The notes below the pieces were generated by a model. It did no database searches, was not told the origin of the DNA, and saw only the letters and a program-made list of their open reading frames with translations. Below are positions 1 through 7,944 of a stretch of 9,649 bases of DNA, one piece after another (within the stretch, counting starts at the first letter, position 1; every line of letters starts with the position of its first letter). Both the position numbers and the translations under genes were made by a program. The stretch lies in UHGV virus genome UHGV-1443331, one strand, 5' to 3'. This DNA comes from a virus.

Positions 1-71
1 CTTCCTCCTTCTTGATCTGTAAATATACAGTTCTAAGCTGTCATAAGACTGACTGTCATATGACAACGTTG

Positions 72-416
72 TTAGATTTTTGAATTTTTCGAATACAGAT
101 TCAGGTCGTTAATAACGCACTCAGGTTCTTCAGTAAGGGGCATATTGTCTATATCGAAAACCCCATCATTTTTTTGTGGATTATCATTCCGCAGCTCTGC
201 AAACAGAGGAGTGAGATCCTGCTGTGCTTCTCCTCGCTCTGCGACCAGTTCGAACGTTTTATTTTTTGCCGCATCGTTGCTCAGAGCTGTTACAAGAACC
301 TGGGCGATTTGCTCCCGGGAGATAACACCATCTTCCGGCGTTCCCGCATGGCGTCTGTCCCCCTGAAGCATGACGATTCTGTGCTCATCATCATTGTTGT
401 AATCAAACCCCTTCAT
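72..416 (-). pseudogene. C-terminal fragment of an NAD(P)-binding (NmrA/SDR-like) oxidoreductase; apparently 5'-truncated remnant
   Basis: 114-aa ORF with motif GTPEDGVISREQIAQVLVTAL...KTFEL, typical of the C-terminal half of NAD(P)H-binding family proteins (recalled, not searched). No Shine-Dalgarno before the ATG at 416 and an in-frame stop at 441-443 leave no room for the N-terminal Rossmann segment. Confidence 0.4.
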
Positions 417-429
417 GAATGCGCTTTGA

Positions 430-1128
<699 letters not shown>

Positions 1129-1315
1129 GGGATATAGTGCCATCAAAGCGCTGGCTGCTGTAAACAACGCAATTATCCAACTCATGGTCTATGGTGTGCC
1201 ATCACTGAACAGAGGTTGAATTTTTCTACCGAAACGGGAGGGAAGTCAGAAATCACAACGTATTGATTTATCTGTGTGTGGATGTGAATGGTGAAGTAAA
1301 GGATCTTCACAGGTA

Positions 1316-1343
1316 ATTTAACATAATATACATTATGCGCACC
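1316..1343 (-). other. dif: dif site (XerC/XerD chromosome dimer resolution site); left attachment site of the integrated phage
   Basis: Reverse complement of 1316..1343 is GGTGCGCATAATGTATATTATGTTAAAT, the canonical enterobacterial dif 28-mer as recalled from memory (XerC arm GGTGCGCATAA, central TGTATA, XerD arm TTATGTTAAAT). Confidence 0.85.
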
Positions 1344-1362
1344 AATGGTAAGGATGGTGGGA
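1329..1362 (+). repeat. Left copy of >=34-bp direct repeat (part of dif central region, XerC arm and 19 bp beyond); partner at 9616..9649
   Basis: tacattatgcgcaccaatggtaaggatggtggga occurs identically at 1329..1362 and 9616..9649; the match breaks one base upstream (a1328 versus g9615). Confidence 0.9.
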
Positions 1363-1381
1363 ACTGGCGTTACCGGTGCCG

Positions 1382-1615
1382 TCATTGGTCACAGACCGTA
1401 ATCCACTGGCCCAGGACGTCTTTCAGGCAATGTTGGCATAAATCCAGTTTTAAGCGATTACTGTCACCAAAAATTGAACCGTATCCAGCTAAGTGATTAA
1501 CAGACAGAAACTCATTGAACTCAATGTCATCTACCACCGTCTTCGCATGGCGACCACAGCGATCGCAGGTCTTCGCACATAACATTACAGTATCGCTGGA
1601 TGTGAAAAATTGCAT
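1382..1615 (-). CDS. Small Cys4 zinc-ribbon protein (77 aa), function unknown; phage accessory gene
   Basis: ORF with strong Shine-Dalgarno (GAGGAGAT, about 7 nt before the ATG at 1615). Cys pattern C13-x3-C17-x2-C20 ... C61-x2-C64 suggests a zinc ribbon. Same strand as the phage genes, downstream of gIV. Confidence 0.6.
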   Translation of the reverse strand: MQFFTSSDTVMLCAKTCDRCGRHAKTVVDDIEFNEFLSVNHLAGYGSIFGDSNRLKLDLCQHCLKDVLGQWITVCDQ

Positions 1616-1688
1616 TTTATCTCCTCGTAATGCTGCCGCGCCGAATCAGCAATAACGCTAAAAAAACAGAATTGTTCGGCTTGGCCAA

Positions 1689-1729
1689 CCCCGGACACTA
1701 ACAAAAGCAAGTTTTGTCACTGTCCGGGG
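1689..1729 (-). terminator. Long imperfect hairpin 3 nt after the 102-aa ORF stop; possible terminator or RNA structure
   Basis: ccccggaca pairs with tgtccgggg (9 bp), with an inner 6-bp stem acaaaa/ttttgt around a 5-nt loop. On the minus strand a T7 run (complement of 1660..1666) follows about 22 nt downstream, which is not canonical spacing. Confidence 0.35.
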
Positions 1730-1732
1730 TTA

Positions 1733-2041
1733 TCATATAAACCAATAGACCGTCCTTACGCCATTCTGGTTATCAATAACATAGCCGCATTGTTTCCTTA
1801 AAAATTCTTCTGCTAAATCAATGGCTTTTAAAGAAATCTCATAAGAAGGAAGTAAAGTGTATCCTTTCCCTTCACTGGCAGCTGCTTTGATCGCATCCAG
1901 AGTATTATCAATCAGTAACAGAGCAAGTGATGCTTCATTTACCTGAGCCGAAGAACTTCTGGCTGCAAGTGTCATTGTTTTTGCTTCTTCCGCTGTAATC
2001 GTTCGTTCTGCCAGAGCAGATAAAATCCCATAAGAATCCAT
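1733..2041 (-). CDS. Hypothetical protein (102 aa), phage accessory gene downstream of gIV
   Basis: ORF on the same strand as the phage genes; GGGGT Shine-Dalgarno-like motif about 6 nt before the ATG at 2041. No recognisable motif. Confidence 0.5.
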   Translation of the reverse strand: MDSYGILSALAERTITAEEAKTMTLAARSSSAQVNEASLALLLIDNTLDAIKAAASEGKGYTLLPSYEISLKAIDLAEEFLRKQCGYVIDNQNGVRTVYWFI

Positions 2042-2061
2042 TAGTTACCCCAATCAATAAT

Positions 2062-2121
2062 GTCCATTTGATGGATAGCGAGCAGGGCTCACGCACCTAC
2101 CCGCTATCCATCAAAGTGGAC
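2062..2121 (-). repeat. 19-bp inverted repeat (hairpin with 21-nt loop) spanning the gIV stop codon; candidate packaging signal or structured element
   Basis: gtccatttgatggatagcg (2062..2080) pairs with cgctatccatcaaagtggac (2102..2121) with one bulged base; loop 2081..2101. It sits where Ff phages carry the post-gIV terminator and packaging-signal hairpin. Confidence 0.5.
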
Positions 2122-3376
2122 GAATGATATGTGCTGTAAGCAAAATATACATAATACGCTGTTCATTGCTGTCTGCCTTGCTACTGAAAATCCAGCCTAT
2201 AAGAGGAATTTTACTTATAACTGGAACTGAACGCTCAGCATTGCTAAACGATGAATCGATAAGCCCCCCCAATAACAACGTCTGACCATCCTTAATCTGG
2301 ACTGTCGTCTGAATCTGGCGCTGATTAGTAATAATATCGGATGCCTGATCATCATTGCTGATTGAATCAGCGCGAGTGTCGATAGTCAGAACTAGTTGCC
2401 CGTTACCCATGACAACAGGCGTTACCTTGAGAGAAACGCCAACATCATGACGCTCGATAGTCTGAAACGGATTATTTACCCCGGCAGATTCGCCCGTTAC
2501 CTTTCCGGTGATAAACGGCACATTCTTACCTACGGAAATGTAACCAGTCTGACCAGACTGAGTAAGAATACGCGGCGTTGAAATCACCTTAGAGCGTGAA
2601 TTACTCTGGACAGCACGCAGAGACAGCGCCAACACGTTACCATCAAAAATACCAAAAGAACCGCCCGCCGTAGAAAGAGCGCTACCCAGTGCAGAAGTAT
2701 TAAAGCCCCCCGCAACCTTATGACCGGATGCAGAACCTGCCGCAAACGATAAATCAACGCCATCAGACAAGCTGGTTTCAAACATCAGCGACTGAATGAG
2801 AACCTGATCGCGGGCAACATCCACAGAATTGATAAAATCGGACAGAACCGGCAGCAGCTCGTCAGGCGCAGAAACAATCAGCGAGTTATTGCCTGGATAA
2901 TCCACGACATTACCACCACCATTAGAATCAAGATAAATTTTAATCAGTTGCTGAACATCGGACGATCTAACTTTTGTCAGCTTAAAATTTCTGACCGTAA
3001 GCGCCACAGGTACTGGCTGGTAAGATGGCTCAGAAGGAAAAGTATCATAAGACTGGTTATCAGAATCATCGGAATCCGAAACCATCTGTGAAGGTAATTT
3101 AGACGGCAAAGAGACTACCGCAGGATTGCCAGAAAGCATGACAAAACCGTTAGCATTCAGAACAGACTTAAAGAAATCATCAATATTTGTTGGATTAACA
3201 TCAGCATTAAATACGGTTACGTTTCCTTTAATATCAGGATTAACAATAACAGGCTTGCCAGTTTTTGAAGAATACCACTGAACAAATGAGCGAACAGATG
3301 AATTGTTTAAATTAACAGTTTCAGCAGAAACGCAGAATGAACAGGCAAATAAAAAAGCAACAATAACAGAGCGCAT
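2111..3376 (-). CDS. IV: Filamentous phage pIV, outer-membrane secretin for virion export
   Basis: Signal-peptide-like start MRSVIVAFLFACSFCVSAETVNL with AGGAGT Shine-Dalgarno before the ATG at 3376 (the ORF track's upstream extension to 3469 overlaps gI and lacks a signal peptide). C-terminal secretin-type motif VPVISKIPLIGWIFSS. Last gene in Ff order after gI. Confidence 0.9.
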   Translation of the reverse strand: MRSVIVAFLFACSFCVSAETVNLNNSSVRSFVQWYSSKTGKPVIVNPDIKGNVTVFNADVNPTNIDDFFKSVLNANGFVMLSGNPAVVSLPSKLPSQMVSDSDDSDNQSYDTFPSEPSYQPVPVALTVRNFKLTKVRSSDVQQLIKIYLDSNGGGNVVDYPGNNSLIVSAPDELLPVLSDFINSVDVARDQVLIQSLMFETSLSDGVDLSFAAGSASGHKVAGGFNTSALGSALSTAGGSFGIFDGNVLALSLRAVQSNSRSKVISTPRILTQSGQTGYISVGKNVPFITGKVTGESAGVNNPFQTIERHDVGVSLKVTPVVMGNGQLVLTIDTRADSISNDDQASDIITNQRQIQTTVQIKDGQTLLLGGLIDSSFSNAERSVPVISKIPLIGWIFSSKADSNEQRIMYILLTAHIIRPL

Positions 3377-3383
3377 AATAATA

Positions 3384-3758
3384 TTACTCCTGACAGATAA
3401 CAGTCTGTAAATAACGGCCTTTTCTAATAACAACACGACAGGCATCTTTAATATCAACGGAATAACCATCTTTAATCAAATCAAAATACTGATATTTCGT
3501 ACCTTTTGCATCAACAAACGTAACGGAAACGTCAAAGCCAAGTTGTGAAAAAGAATTAATAGAAAGTCGGGGTAAGTCACTGGACGAATCAGGCGTTACC
3601 GCCCTCGCCTGTTCAGCATAAGCAGATTTAATAGCGGAGATTTCATCAACATTCTTTCCAGACTGGAGCCAGAAACCAAGCGCAAGCCCCAGCGCCAAAA
3701 AAGAAAGCATTAATATAAGACGGTTCGATTTGCGAAAATAAATTTTCGTGAGGCGCAT
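3384..3758 (-). CDS. XI: Candidate pXI: in-frame internal restart within gI giving the C-terminal 124 aa including the TM segment
   Basis: Internal ATG at 3758 (MRLTKIYFRKSNRLILMLSF...) lies just upstream of the TM helix, as for pXI in Ff phages. Inferred by analogy only. Confidence 0.3.
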   Translation of the reverse strand: MRLTKIYFRKSNRLILMLSFLALGLALGFWLQSGKNVDEISAIKSAYAEQARAVTPDSSSDLPRLSINSFSQLGFDVSVTFVDAKGTKYQYFDLIKDGYSVDIKDACRVVIRKGRYLQTVICQE

Positions 3759-4478
3759 ATAATAATTAAATCCTCTGTGAACAGAAAATTGACCGTGCGT
3801 GATAAATGGTGGCAAAAGCGAATAAGCACCATGCGGATAGTTATCAGTAAAAACCTGTTTTGTATTGTAGGCGGAATATAATGATTTTCCGGTGTATATC
3901 CATTTATCAACAGTAATTGAATTAACGTTATCACCATATTTGACAATGCCAAAGTGTACCTTTGGTAAAGAAAATCGCGCCCCTGAAACCAAATTCATAA
4001 TGGAGCCAACAAAAGGAATGTTTAATTTATCTGAACGGCGACAATAAACAACATGCTCAGCAAGCGCCAGACGAGCTTGCTTATCCATTATCGAAATATC
4101 CTGAATCAAAAATATAATATCCCAGCCTAATTTTCTGGCATGTAAAAACCAGTCAATAACAGGTTGTCTGTCTTTATCACCCCATGAGCGGGAATTAAAC
4201 CAAGTACCACATTCATCAAGTACAAGGAGGCCATTACGGGATTCATCGTAAGATGTATTCCCAATACCAATAGCAAGTAAATCATTTAATGAAGGCTTGT
4301 CAGGAATGCGAATAACGCGCGTTTTTTTCGCATAACGCCCAACCATAGGCATATTATGCAATTTAAGATCAAGATTAGTGGCAACAGGACAACCCTTAGC
4401 AAGTCTTTCCTGTATTCTGGAAACACTAACAAGTGTCTTGCCTGAGCCTAATTTGCCTGTTACTACATGAACCGCCAT
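3384..4478 (-). CDS. I: Filamentous phage pI, assembly ATPase (Zot-like) with Walker A motif
   Basis: N-terminus MAVHVVTGKLGSGKTLVSV...LLVLDECGTWFNSRSW...DWFLHARKLGWDIIFLIQD is near-identical in pattern to M13 pI as recalled; Walker A GKLGSGKT; internal TM segment LILMLSFLALGLALGFWL. Confidence 0.95.
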   Translation of the reverse strand: MAVHVVTGKLGSGKTLVSVSRIQERLAKGCPVATNLDLKLHNMPMVGRYAKKTRVIRIPDKPSLNDLLAIGIGNTSYDESRNGLLVLDECGTWFNSRSWGDKDRQPVIDWFLHARKLGWDIIFLIQDISIMDKQARLALAEHVVYCRRSDKLNIPFVGSIMNLVSGARFSLPKVHFGIVKYGDNVNSITVDKWIYTGKSLYSAYNTKQVFTDNYPHGAYSLLPPFITHGQFSVHRGFNYYMRLTKIYFRKSNRLILMLSFLALGLALGFWLQSGKNVDEISAIKSAYAEQARAVTPDSSSDLPRLSINSFSQLGFDVSVTFVDAKGTKYQYFDLIKDGYSVDIKDACRVVIRKGRYLQTVICQE

Positions 4479-4820
4479 TTAAATCACCCTGTTTGCATAA
4501 TCAAGAAATTTTTGTTTTAAATCGAAAACAAAAACACTGATACGAGTAACCATAATAACGTTAACACACGCCTGAAAATGGTCAGGCAATACAGACGCCA
4601 TTAAATGGGAGAAATCAGCAGGTAAACCGTTATACATGACCTCAGCAAGGTACTGCATTAAAAGCGTAACAGTTGTTGTAATTAATGCGACCAATGCAAA
4701 GGCGATTAATCCTGTTCTGGTAGCAAGTCGAGCTAAAAAACTCGCCACATAGCCAATAAACAAAGGAACAAGACCAATAAGAAAACGCAACAATGCAGGA
4801 ATACCTAATAATAAAGGCAT
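4479..4820 (-). CDS. VI: Filamentous phage pVI, minor coat protein
   Basis: [17 protein letters not shown]... resembles M13 pVI MPVLLGIPLLLRFLGFL... (recalled), with C-terminal FVFDLKQKFLDY versus FIFDVKQKIVSY. ATG at 4820 overlaps the gIII TGA stop (ATGA junction); the track's GTG at 4823 adds one residue. Confidence 0.9.
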   Translation of the reverse strand: MPLLLGIPALLRFLIGLVPLFIGYVASFLARLATRTGLIAFALVALITTTVTLLMQYLAEVMYNGLPADFSHLMASVLPDHFQACVNVIMVTRISVFVFDLKQKFLDYANRVI

Positions 4821-6070
4821 CACTCACCCCCTTTGCGAAGCAATGAAGTTAAAGAAGTAAAGACATACCAGAACGTAAGGCAATAAAAAACCCATGAAAG
4901 AACATCTTTAATAGTCAGTAATTTATCGCAACCAATATCAATCTGATAAACCTCTCCGGGAAAAATAATAAAATCAGAGCAGCCGTTACCATTGGGTAAA
5001 TTAGGCAGCATAGCACCTTTATTTAAAAATGCTTCCCATAAAGCACCGTGAGAATCCTTTTCAATTCCCAATTCAGAATCAGCCAAAGTAGAAGCGCCAT
5101 CTAATTCAGAGTCGCCCTTTCCATAACGAGAATCACCACCTGAAGGGTCAGCAAAACGGCCAGCCCCCCGCGTAAGATTGTTAATGGAATCGTCAAGACG
5201 ATTTATATTATTCCTAGTTTGTTCATCGGCATTTTTTTTATCATCTGATGAAGTGTCTTTCTCCGTTAATTTATCATGAATATCGCTGGCTATTTTGGGT
5301 GAAGCACCTTCGATAGCAGACTGAATATCACCTTTAGAAAGACTGGAACCACTAAAGCCACCGCCAGAACTACCGCCACCGGACTCACCACCGCCAGAAC
5401 TACCGCCACCGGACTCACCACCGCCAGACTCACCACCGCCAGACTCACCACCACCATTTTGGGGGGTTGAGGGTTTATCAGAGGGGTCAGCTACAGTACC
5501 TGTAGGCTTCCATGTTGCAGCGCAAACAGTACCATCACCCTGACAAACAATGACACCAGTAGCCTCATATTCACAGCCGTTATAGTAGATATAACGACCA
5601 CCATCATATGAATCAACATTATTAAATACACCTTCTTCTGGCGGCTTCGCTTCACAAATTTCTTCTGGTGTCGGGTCAGTAGGTTTTTCATCAGGAACAG
5701 AACGCTGAATATCACCAACAATATAAGCCGTTAAAGACCAATATTTATCCTTCTGCCCTGGTGAATCGCTGTAAGTACAATCACCAGTAAAAACAAGACG
5801 GAATTCAGAATCAGGCCAGATACCCTCATAAGTTGGTTTAACCTGAGTAAATACACTCTGAGCACTGGATTTAGCACCCTGACAAGCGGAGGCCTGCATA
5901 GCAGCATCAATATAGTAAACCGTTGACTTAGAGCCATCCTGATTGGTTATTTGCTTACTTTCAGCGTAGGCAGAGCTTTGATAAGTGGATTTAGTAATGC
6001 TTTCCCATGACTCAGCATGTGAAAAAGGAGAAATGAGGACAGCGGAAAGAATTAATATTTTCCTTTTCAT
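4820..6070 (-). CDS. III: Filamentous phage pIII, adsorption/attachment protein with signal peptide, Gly-rich linker and C-terminal membrane anchor
   Basis: Start at ATG 6070 ([19 protein letters not shown] signal peptide), directly after the post-gVIII terminator; the track's extension to 6214 overlaps gVIII. Linker [13 protein letters not shown]... and C-terminus [36 protein letters not shown] resemble M13 g3p (recalled). Confidence 0.9.
5356..5454 (-). repeat. Perfect tandem DNA repeats encoding the pIII Gly/Ser/Glu linker
   Basis: 30-bp unit cgccagaactaccgccaccggactcaccac at 5361..5390 repeats exactly at 5391..5420; 15-bp unit cgccagactcaccac at 5421..5435 and 5436..5450. Confidence 0.9.
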
Positions 6071-6082
6071 AGTAACCCGCTT

Positions 6083-6107
6083 TAATAAAGGGGCAACGAG
6101 TGCCCCT
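6083..6107 (-). terminator. Rho-independent terminator between gVIII and gIII (the Ff central terminator position)
   Basis: On the minus strand: stem AGGGGCA, loop CTCGT, stem TGCCCCT, then TTTATT, starting 9 nt after the gVIII stop. Confidence 0.8.
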
Positions 6108-6116
6108 GAGTGAAAT

Positions 6117-6359
6117 TCAAACCGCTTTTGAAGAGAATTTTTTGAAAATACGAATGGCAAGCCCAGCGCCAACCACAGCCACAACAACAGGCCATACTTT
6201 ACCAATGAGATCATTTGCCTGAGTCAACAAAGCATCCATTGCCTGACCTGCATAATCAGTACCACCTGTAGCGCCTTCAGCCGCAAAAGAACTTGCAGAA
6301 ACAAAAAGCGCAGTTGAAGCCAGAGCAACTTTATATTTAACAGTAGACAGAATTTTCAT
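6117..6359 (-). CDS. VIII: Filamentous phage pVIII, major coat protein (IKe-like)
   Basis: 80 aa with signal peptide ending SFA/AEG. Mature region [46 protein letters not shown] closely matches IKe g8p (...[41 protein letters not shown], recalled). GGAG Shine-Dalgarno upstream. Confidence 0.95.
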
Positions 6360-6378
6360 AGGAATAACTCCATTAAGG

Positions 6379-6474
6379 TTACATTAATCGGTCAGAAAAT
6401 GATTTAAATGAACCGACCGCATAGAAAAGGGCAAAACCAAAGGTATAAGCCCCGAAGAAATAAACGATATACAT
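6379..6474 (-). CDS. IX: Filamentous phage pIX, minor coat protein (31 aa)
   Basis: Small hydrophobic ORF MYIVYFFGAYTFGFALFYAVGSFKSFSDRLM whose ATG overlaps the gVII stop (TAATG), placed between gVII and gVIII as in Ff. It is the true coding part of the track's 74-aa ORF 6379..6603. Confidence 0.75.
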   Translation of the reverse strand: MYIVYFFGAYTFGFALFYAVGSFKSFSDRLM

Positions 6475-6560
6475 TAACGAAAGACCCCCGCAGTAATCGC
6501 GCCGAGGCCAAAAGAAATAACGATGCCAGACGCTATCAAAATTTGAATAACATCGTCCAT
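6474..6560 (-). CDS. VII: Filamentous phage pVII, minor coat protein (28 aa)
   Basis: Hand-translated small ORF MDDVIQILIASGIVISFGLGAITAGVFR, resembling the M13 pVII C-terminus ...VLCFALGIIAGGQR (recalled). AAAGG Shine-Dalgarno upstream; begins 3 nt after the gV stop. Confidence 0.75.
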   Translation of the reverse strand: MDDVIQILIASGIVISFGLGAITAGVFR

Positions 6561-6562
6561 AT

Positions 6563-6880
6563 TTAACCTTTGATCTCTGCGATGCCACCATCGGAAGAAA
6601 CATTATAAGTTACACCTTCCCTACCCTCCATTGACCACGCACGGACATAGACAGGAATTTGAACTAATTTCCCAATGAAAGCATTCGCCTGGTTCATTAG
6701 ACCTGCGTTAACGAGAGTCTGAGAAACTCGAATAATAATTTGATCCTGCTTTGTACCACCAAAACCATCAGGTATTTCAAGGCCAATACCAATTTCATTA
6801 TAATAGCCCTGACCATTAACTTTATTACGTTGGCGGGCTCCCAACATTTTACCCTTAACGAAAAGACCATAATTAGACAT
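6563..6880 (-). CDS. V: Gene V-position protein, putative ssDNA-binding protein (105 aa)
   Basis: Only ORF of 60 aa or more between gII and gVII; AGGAAAG Shine-Dalgarno before the ATG at 6880. Sequence similarity to Ff gVp is not obvious, so the call rests on position. Confidence 0.55.
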   Translation of the reverse strand: MSNYGLFVKGKMLGARQRNKVNGQGYYNEIGIGLEIPDGFGGTKQDQIIIRVSQTLVNAGLMNQANAFIGKLVQIPVYVRAWSMEGREGVTYNVSSDGGIAEIKG

Positions 6881-6891
6881 ATTACTTTCCT

Positions 6892-7206
6892 TTAATGCCA
6901 GCTACTGGCGTGCGAAATACGGTTGTAATCGAAAATAAAACCTTTCTCATAAATCCATAAGGGGATTTCCACTGGCTTGGCTTCCAGCGTTCTTATTAGC
7001 GGAACAACGTTATTAGAGTCTGGTGAATCACAATAGAAATTAATATCGATACCGAACGAAAGCAATTCTCTTCTATGGCGATAAAAAGTGTTATGAGGTA
7101 ACATTTCTTTCATGTTAGCCCCTTGTTTCCAAAGTAAATAAGTTGACTGTATTTTTCTTGGCAGTTTCGTTATTTTTTCATCACTTAAAATAGCATTCTG
7201 ATTCAT
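6892..7206 (-). CDS. X: Candidate pX: in-frame internal restart within gII giving the C-terminal 104 aa
   Basis: Internal ATG at 7206 preceded by GGGAGAA about 9 nt upstream; Ff phages make pX (111 aa in M13) this way. Inferred by analogy. Confidence 0.3.
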   Translation of the reverse strand: MNQNAILSDEKITKLPRKIQSTYLLWKQGANMKEMLPHNTFYRHRRELLSFGIDINFYCDSPDSNNVVPLIRTLEAKPVEIPLWIYEKGFIFDYNRISHASSWH

Positions 7207-7944
7207 TTCTATTCTCCCTACATATTCAGAGAATAATTGACGTGGTGTTTTCATATTCCAGTTAGCGCCAAGCGTTAAATTTAAATCAATAAGCTCAGTT
7301 GTTCTTAATGTTAATTCAATACGTAATTTATCTTTCGTCCAGTCCAGTAACCCGGCTCGTACAAAATCTTCGGCTATCTGGTGCCCTTTTTTACCCGAAA
7401 CGTGTTCATCATATTTTGAATAAAATTTCAGACTCCATCGACGGGAGTTTTTACCTAAATAAACTGTACCGCCTTTCCCACATGCGCGACCATGGCGTGT
7501 TTTAGCTTTAAATTCGGCGGCATAAAGCCATGATCTGACATTTTCTAGCGTAGATAATGAATACATGTAATTAATGTCAACACGTGAAATTTTATACTGA
7601 CCTGCTATAACAGCTTTATAAGACGCTAAATCATGAGGAATATTCAATAAGGATAAAATCCTGGCATAGACCGTCAACATGAGCCCTTGTATATCATCCG
7701 ACCCAACAACAGAATGCCCCTGCAAAAACTTGGACGGATTACCATCAATGTACAAATGTGTCGCTTTACCTTCGCCATTAGATCCTATCGATCGTACTTT
7801 CATCGTTGCTTCATGCGAGCCGCGAACAGTCAGTCGCTTAACGGTTTCCCACTCAATTGCACCGTCAGCATCAACGCTGACAACACTCCCCGCCGGAAGC
7901 GGTTTGTGTGTGCAAGGGAAAATCCCGGTAAGCCAATCGATCAC
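6892..7944 (-). CDS. II: Filamentous phage pII, rolling-circle replication initiator (nickase)
   Basis: Motifs GNPSKFLQGHSVVGSDD and NNVVPLIR match M13 pII (ASPAKVLQGHNVFGTTD, NNVVPLVR; recalled). Preferred start is GTG at 7944 (protein begins IDWLTG, compare M13 MIDMLV) with a strong TGAGGAT Shine-Dalgarno; the track's GTG at 7986 is an upstream in-frame alternative. Confidence 0.9.
   Translation of the reverse strand: MIDWLTGIFPCTHKPLPAGSVVSVDADGAIEWETVKRLTVRGSHEATMKVRSIGSNGEGKATHLYIDGNPSKFLQGHSVVGSDDIQGLMLTVYARILSLLNIPHDLASYKAVIAGQYKISRVDINYMYSLSTLENVRSWLYAAEFKAKTRHGRACGKGGTVYLGKNSRRWSLKFYSKYDEHVSGKKGHQIAEDFVRAGLLDWTKDKLRIELTLRTTELIDLNLTLGANWNMKTPRQLFSEYVGRIEMNQNAILSDEKITKLPRKIQSTYLLWKQGANMKEMLPHNTFYRHRRELLSFGIDINFYCDSPDSNNVVPLIRTLEAKPVEIPLWIYEKGFIFDYNRISHASSWH

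Follow-up and report, generated by a model that had tools for sequence, protein, structure and literature searches.

The DNA analysed here (the window) is a stretch of 9,649 nucleotides from the UHGV virus genome UHGV-1443331. It is an exact substring of the chromosome of Escherichia coli 85.0412 (NZ_CP122448.1), corresponding to positions 10658–20306 of the chromosomal extract that we used (L001; window coordinate = L001 coordinate − 10657). From left to right, the window holds host DNA, a dif site, a complete filamentous prophage and the beginning of a further phage unit (Table 1). The core genes of the prophage were assigned by Pfam and PHROG searches and follow the IKe/I2-2-like order gII, gV, gVII/gIX, gVIII, gIII, gVI, gI, gIV. 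One of the small minor-virion genes (CDS 6474–6560) is annotated in RefSeq as ‘tail virion protein G7P-2’. Beyond the core, the element carries two extra open reading frames (ORFs) after gIV and a set of reverse-oriented ORFs adjoining dif, as in the UPΦ group of phages. The Pfam and PHROG searches revealed no integrase or recombinase family in any annotated ORF. The repeat tract of gIII (5328–5462) differs in copy number between strains, and the units of strain Combat2C1 are 30 nt longer there (8,317 versus 8,287 bp). Variation of GGGES repeats has also been noted for UPΦ phages (PMC7307601).

Table 1. Features of the window, with positions, strand and the evidence or remarks for each.
Feature	Position	Strand	Evidence or remarks
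Host DNA, XerD side of dif	72–1038		SDR oxidoreductase pseudogene 72–407 (−), LysR regulator pseudogene 457–1038 (+); RefSeq annotation of the identical stretch
Perfect 28-bp dif, host-to-phage junction	1316–1343	−	XerD arm 1316–1326, central region 1327–1332, XerC arm 1333–1343; regenerated
Flagged 19 nt	1344–1362		First bases of the phage unit after the XerC arm; phage DNA, not host
Complete unit, UPΦ-group filamentous prophage	1344–9630	− (core genes)	8,287 bp; equal to unit 2 of E. coli 85.0412 with 0 mismatches
Two accessory ORFs, function unknown	1382–1615, 1733–2041	−	phrog_5435, phrog_4115
gIV secretin	2111–3376	−	Pfam Secretin 5.7e-43, plus N0 and Secretin_N domains
gI assembly ATPase (Zot-like)	3384–4478	−	Pfam Zot 2.6e-40
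gVI-like minor virion protein (DUF5455)	4479–4820	−	Pfam DUF5455 6.6e-9; phrog_1944 minor head protein 1.3e-43
gIII attachment protein	4820–6070	−	Pfam G3P_pilus-bind 5.6e-26, Phage_Coat_A; glycine-rich 15-nt repeat tract 5328–5462
gVIII major coat protein	6117–6359	−	Pfam Phage_coatGP8 4.8e-19
Small minor-virion genes (gVII/gIX-like)	6379–6560	−	phrog_19107, phrog_28333, both minor head protein
gV single-stranded DNA-binding protein	6563–6880	−	Pfam Putative_G5P 7.4e-51
gII rolling-circle replication initiator	6892–7944	−	Pfam Phage_CRI 3.2e-70, G2P_X_C 4.8e-29
Divergent accessory/regulatory module, four ORFs	8114–8296, 8412–8552, 8554–8829, 8841–9533	+	PHROGs of unknown function
94-nt attP module, two inverted dif-like sites	9537–9630	−	Inverted repeat; predicted forked hairpin in the gene-sense single strand
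First 19 nt of second tandem unit	9631–9649		Window end; full identical unit follows in E. coli 85.0412 and MS 200-1

The unit is 100.0% identical, over query positions 1–8289, to positions 1592401–1600689 of E. coli ECONIH2, which are the third, hipA-proximal unit of that strain. ECONIH2 has been described as a UPΦ tandem triple whose third copy is unlike the first two (PMC7307601). Two published primers for verifying integration match the window exactly, the host-side IntCheck_FW at 1274–1293 on the plus strand and the phage-side IntCheck_RV at 1995–2014 on the minus strand; the pair flanks the dif site at 1316–1343. The near-identity to ECONIH2, the core gene set and the integration at dif together with the IntCheck primers show that the element belongs to the UPΦ-group inoviruses. 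A phage collection contained no close free-phage record, only matches of ~79–88% over 116–190 nt of gIV to IKe and PEar phages, and the identification was therefore made through E. coli genomes and the literature. The described members of the group (UPφ901 and the ECONIH2 prophages; Shapiro & Putonti, 2020, PMC7307601) occur in the same host species and likewise sit between the LysR pseudogene and hipA, where they are integrated in tandem at dif and repeat just 15 nt of it. UPφ901 measures 7,560 bp compared with 8,287 bp for the unit described here, a difference due to the accessory module of the latter.

On the plus strand, the dif site at the host-to-phage junction reads ATTTAACATAA TATACA TTATGCGCACC and is identical to the unoccupied dif of E. 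coli FDAARGOS_1304. The canonical dif, GGTGCGCATAATGTATATTATGTTAAAT, accordingly reads on the minus strand of 1316–1343. The site at the right end of the prophage (9603–9630) reads ACATAACGAGT CGTACA TTATGCGCACC and shares with the perfect dif only the XerC arm and the adjoining TACA, 15 nt in all. The host side of dif (window 1–1343) is variable, with at least 80% of this flank present in 125 of 5,426 E. coli genomes.

The preliminary description of this DNA, made from the window's letters, had pointed out that aatggtaaggatggtggga directly follows the XerC arm at both ends and that the repeat reaches at least 19 bp past the arm. Both observations are correct. The XerC arms, TTATGCGCACC, lie at 1333–1343 and 9620–9630, and each is followed by the 19 nt, at 1344–1362 and 9631–9649. 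The exact direct repeat is 34 nt long (1329–1362 = 9616–9649) and takes in, besides the flagged 19 nt, the 11-nt XerC arm and the last four nucleotides of the central region before it; on its right side it runs into the window end, where it is cut off. For a sequence of the window's size and composition, the chance expectation is ~7e-13 exact 34-mer pairs and ~4e-4 exact 19-mer pairs. The premise drawn from the repeat is equally sound: Xer exchange within the 28-bp site should not duplicate sequence outside it. Two readings had been put forward on this basis, namely that the window ends at the start of a tandem copy or that the phage attachment region carries host-flank sequence, and alignment of the sequence past 9649 to that from 1363 onward was proposed as the check.

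We performed this extension in the source chromosome. The bases after window position 9649 in 85.0412 are actggcgttaccggtgcc..., the same as those after 1362, and no divergence follows. Instead, a second full unit occupies L001 20288–28574; both units are 8,287 bp in length and differ at no position, confirming that the window ends at the start of a tandem copy in NZ_CP122448.1. The order at this locus is dif, unit, hybrid site, unit, hybrid site and hipA flank, and RefSeq accordingly lists the gene set twice, in identical form, from the LysR pseudogene to hipA. Host flank appears in 85.0412 only past the third XerC arm, as aacataaaccaagggag... (aacataaacc...), leading to hipA. The same two-unit structure occurs in MS 200-1, the second genome that matches at 100%. 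The phage genome begins with the flagged 19 nt, which is why the XerC arm is followed by them at dif-to-phage and copy-to-copy junctions alike, and they were found in this position at every such junction in 85.0412 (L001), Combat2C1 (L002), ECONIH2 (L015) and a further locus (L054). Among carriers, arrays are the common state, since 47 of the 5,426 complete E. coli genomes searched hold at least 80% of the unit and 35 hold a full copy-to-copy junction, the two sets being counted separately and not necessarily nested.

The site before integration is visible in FDAARGOS_1304. Its left flank matches the window's left flank at 118 of 120 positions, and its right flank is the post-array flank of 85.0412 (120 of 120). 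The flagged 19 nt are missing from this unoccupied site, where aacataaacc comes after dif. At both outer junctions of the array, host and phage sequences switch inside the 15 nt common to dif and attP (XerC arm plus TACA), which places the crossover within these shared 15 nt, on the XerC side of the central region. In lysogens whose unit is the last of an array, the match ends at query position 8289 (window 9632), 2 nt past the XerC arm; those that match only to this position, including one with a single place in its record, show host sequence immediately past the XerC arm. What can thus be read directly from the genomes is the tandem arrangement, the empty site and where the crossover lies. 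We are highly confident that 9616–9649 is the junction of two head-to-tail UPΦ-group prophages at the E. coli dif, an explanation that includes a putative Xer mechanism of insertion. This arrangement is known rather than new: UPΦ phages have been reported as tandem repeats at dif, with repeats matching ‘the first fifteen bases’ of dif (PMC7307601).

The same copy-to-copy junction is expected from successive integration, from the integration of a multimeric replicative form and from unequal homologous recombination, and the two identical units of 85.0412 fit any of the three. Arrays of unlike units bear on the choice between them. In Combat2C1 (L002 3627–12000) and ECONIH2 (L015 2214–18901), a window-type unit lies at the hipA end and one or more variant units adjoin dif. 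The dif-proximal units carry a different module of ~1.2 kb, which replaces window ~8345–9528. Such mixed arrays need at least two acquisitions and cannot be the duplication of one unit; they fit successive insertion at a regenerated dif. Where the window has its ORFs at 8412–9533, the replacement module includes a gene for an ‘ECs_2282 family putative zinc-binding protein’.

The principal alternative is that the array is real but arose by amplification, either through integration of a dimeric replicative form or through unequal homologous recombination, with either a sister chromosome or an episomal copy as partner. The identity of the two 85.0412 units at all 8,287 positions and the two identical units that stand side by side in ECONIH2 are in keeping with such an origin, and a review of YpfΦ considers that homologous recombination may alter the copy number (PMC4266046). 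However, the mixed arrays of Combat2C1 and ECONIH2 call for at least two independent acquisitions, and the perfect regenerated dif is an available target for further insertion. We therefore regard amplification as a possible but rather unlikely account overall; for the two identical units of 85.0412 in particular, amplification by recombination is possible.

A circular replicative form carries the same junction sequence as two adjacent copies, so that an assembler might join a single prophage and a circular form into an apparent tandem repeat, and the coverage-based inference in PMC7307601 cannot separate these two states. The units of E. coli EC5502, whose many frameshifts are typical of high-copy DNA in a noisy assembly, illustrate the risk. 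Nonetheless, the junction occurs in 35 independent complete genomes, ECONIH2 was sequenced with both PacBio and Illumina (PMC7307601), the mixed arrays contain different units in a fixed order between dif and hipA, and chromosomal tandem arrays have been reported for the related YpfΦ (PMC4266046). An assembly artefact is accordingly very improbable as the explanation of the repeat. The EC5502 record itself (NZ_CP092647.1, L004) contains the junction probe at 17 places, with at least five consecutive units within 40 kb and most genes annotated as frameshifted; it represents an array of great length or else, as it looks, a noisy assembly of long reads from high-copy phage DNA.

The second reading of the preliminary description, in which the attachment region carries a host-derived flank and a single copy would show the 19-nt repeat at both ends, can be given practically no weight: 9 of the first 19 nt agree in register between the phage flank and the native host flank, and the Yersinia pestis flank after the last YpfΦ unit resembles the phage start (score 27 versus a null of 13.5 ± 2.2), but in E. 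coli the native sequence past the XerC arm is aacataaaccaaggg..., which has no more than ‘AA’ in contiguous agreement with the phage flank, its local alignment (13.0) is no better than the shuffled null (13.2 ± 2.0), the match ends 2 nt past the XerC arm in array-last units and a complete second unit follows in the source genome, so that for E. coli the unoccupied dif and the shuffled-control alignment refute it.

In the attachment module at the end of the unit, two dif-like sites face each other in inverted orientation (9537–9563 opposite 9598–9630). The left site consists of a XerC-like arm (9537–9547, GGTTCGCACAA), a spacer (9548–9552, TGACG) and a XerD-like arm (9553–9563, TTATGCTAAAG). 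A GC-rich stem (9564–9574 / 9587–9597) with a loop at 9575–9586 connects it to the right site, which comprises a XerD-like arm (9598–9608, TTTCAACATAA), an 11-nt spacer (9609–9619, CGAGTCGTACA) and the XerC arm (9620–9630, TTATGCGCACC). DNA folding of the minus strand gave −31.2 kcal/mol (z = −8.0), and none of 200 shuffles was as stable. The predicted hairpin pairs the perfect XerC arm, GGTGCGCATAA, with TTGTGCGAACC; it contains an asymmetric internal loop, and the XerD-like arm TTATGTTGAAA is paired with its partner. A consensus fold of nine distinct variants contains 35 pairs, four of them compensatory, each from one divergent sequence among variants that are close to each other; covariation lends the hairpin weak support. 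The strand reading GGTGCGCATAA has the sense of the phage genes and, judging from their orientation, is presumably the one that is packaged. The GC-rich stem with its T run could also act as a transcription terminator, for example for the ORF ending at 9533.

A VGJφ-type attP, that is, a single double-stranded site of ~29 bp with a 6–7 bp centre, was considered first, on account of the perfect XerC arm and the shared TACA. It was set aside for three reasons: the XerD position at 6-bp spacing (ACATAACGAGT, 9603–9613) matches the XerD arm of dif at 5 of 11 positions, a good XerD-like arm, matching at 9 of 11 positions, is separated from the XerC arm by 11 nt, and there is a second site in the opposite orientation. 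The junction sequences by themselves are compatible with a crossover on the XerC side and fit double-stranded (VGJφ-like) and single-stranded (CTXφ-like) integration equally well. The architecture of attP, as modelled here, points to XerC-driven single-strand integration. The text of PMC7307601 contains neither ‘attP’ nor ‘inverted’, and a second inverted dif-like site or a folded attP is not described there for UPΦ. The predicted double-dif hairpin, which is shared with YpfΦ, is only a small addition to what is known of UPΦ.

Several elements of the proposed mechanism are suggested by CTXφ of Vibrio cholerae. In the (+)ssDNA of this phage, two inverted dif-like sites form a forked hairpin, and the phage uses the host XerCD without an integrase of its own (PMC4246890). 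In the CTXφ class, a XerC-only exchange is completed by replication and is irreversible, phage production depends on tandem prophages, and CTXφ forms tandem arrays at dif, mixed ones included (PMC4246890). The phage described here resembles this class in its inverted dif-like sites and in the lack of a recombinase among its annotated ORFs; that its packaged strand folds into a comparable forked hairpin, with XerC- and XerD-binding duplexes around a mismatched centre, is a prediction. CTXφ differs in its host and dif sequence and shows no sequence homology to the UPΦ unit, which has no toxin cargo.

By this analogy, a UPΦ phage without an integrase would use the host XerCD. Through the two inverted dif-like sites, the single strand of gene sense that is packaged may adopt a forked hairpin like that of CTXφ, on which XerC would exchange one strand pair adjoining its arm, with replication finishing the insertion. 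After such an insertion, the XerD side would hold a perfect dif and the hipA side a hybrid site. As the perfect dif is regenerated, further phage genomes could insert there, building a head-to-tail array with the newest unit next to dif; the regenerated site would also keep chromosome dimer resolution available. Rolling-circle replication started by gII could then cross the junction into the next unit and release a complete genome without excision, as for CTXφ. We infer the XerC-only catalysis, the single-strand integration, the order of insertion and the array-dependent phage production. The position of the newest unit next to dif is not assured, since superinfecting YpfΦ genomes have been reported to insert preferentially between resident copies and not at the array end (PMC4266046).

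YpfΦ of Y. pestis is a dif-integrated inovirus that forms arrays of two to four tandem copies and is proposed to use a folded substrate like that of CTXφ; CUS-1 of E. coli K1 is treated alongside it (PMC4266046). The 94-nt attP module of YpfΦ and the 14 nt that follow are nearly the same as in the window, its gII is 86% identical, and it shows a copy-to-copy junction of the same form. In contrast, most other genes are less than 20% identical between YpfΦ and UPΦ (PMC7307601), and the YpfΦ sequence departs from the window's 14 nt past the XerC arm. In Y. pestis NCTC5923 (L009 ~5360–5395, minus strand), a variant XerC arm, TTATGTGCACC, comes after the last YpfΦ unit, and the 22 nt past this arm resemble the start of YpfΦ at 20 positions. 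These 22 nt may be what is left of a related, older element beside the dif of Y. pestis.

The same attP module is present in YpfΦ and in Phytobacter, Brenneria and IMG/VR contigs. The first 14 nt past the XerC arm (AATGGTAAGGATGG, 1344–1357) are identical in UPΦ and YpfΦ, after which the sequence and the adjoining genes diverge; the predicted hairpin pairs only the first three of these 14 conserved nt. One conceivable reading, which we hold to be unlikely at present, is that the attachment unit is a portable module of ~112 nt (the 94-nt hairpin flanked by 4 nt and, at its other side, by 14 nt), with the 14 nt AATGGTAAGGATGG perhaps a functional part of it and not a passenger. This module may have been kept almost unchanged in UPΦ, in YpfΦ and in non-phage dif inserts. 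If so, the 14 nt AATGGTAAGGATGG could serve Xer synapsis on the folded strand or the processing of array-derived genomes.

Hairpin modules also lie outside complete inoviruses, as a non-phage dif insert in E. coli strain 405 ends in one that is 83% identical (L055 ~3400–6223; the insert holds an ISNCY transposase remnant and a SIR2-family gene). On large E. coli plasmids such as NZ_CP076655.1 (L005 78–105, 1851–3074), half of the attP hairpin is present in truncated form, with 91% identity to window 9533–9607. These plasmids also carry a dif-like site that reads ATTTAACATAA GATAGA TTGTGCGCACA, together with ISNCY-family transposases and an ECs_2282-type module. A short stretch resembling 9533–9607 occurs at ~480 plasmid places in complete E. 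coli genomes, and at least 80% of the 3.1-kb plasmid arrangement is held by 64 PLSDB plasmids.

One further locus lies on a contig labelled as a Candidatus Nanosynbacter metagenome-assembled genome (L006). Since its dif region is 96–98% identical to E. coli, the label probably reflects a binning error. This contig contains an insert of 3,447 bp (L006 1811–5268), which separates the UPΦ right junction from a third dif-like site and at both ends of which ~25 nt of ‘host’ flank (aacataaaccaagggagaatccagt) are repeated. A Pfam search of this ~3.4-kb insert gave no matches.

For the annotation of this DNA, the prophage is to be delimited as the unit 1344–9630, which affects how copy number is read in assemblies. 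Beyond its use for annotation, the finding that the window breaks off within a tandem array of an already published prophage is of little consequence. CTXφ-like phages are known to be produced, and hybridised, from tandem and mixed dif arrays, and the UPΦ arrays of urinary E. coli are thus a possible route for reassorting accessory modules, as already discussed in the literature.
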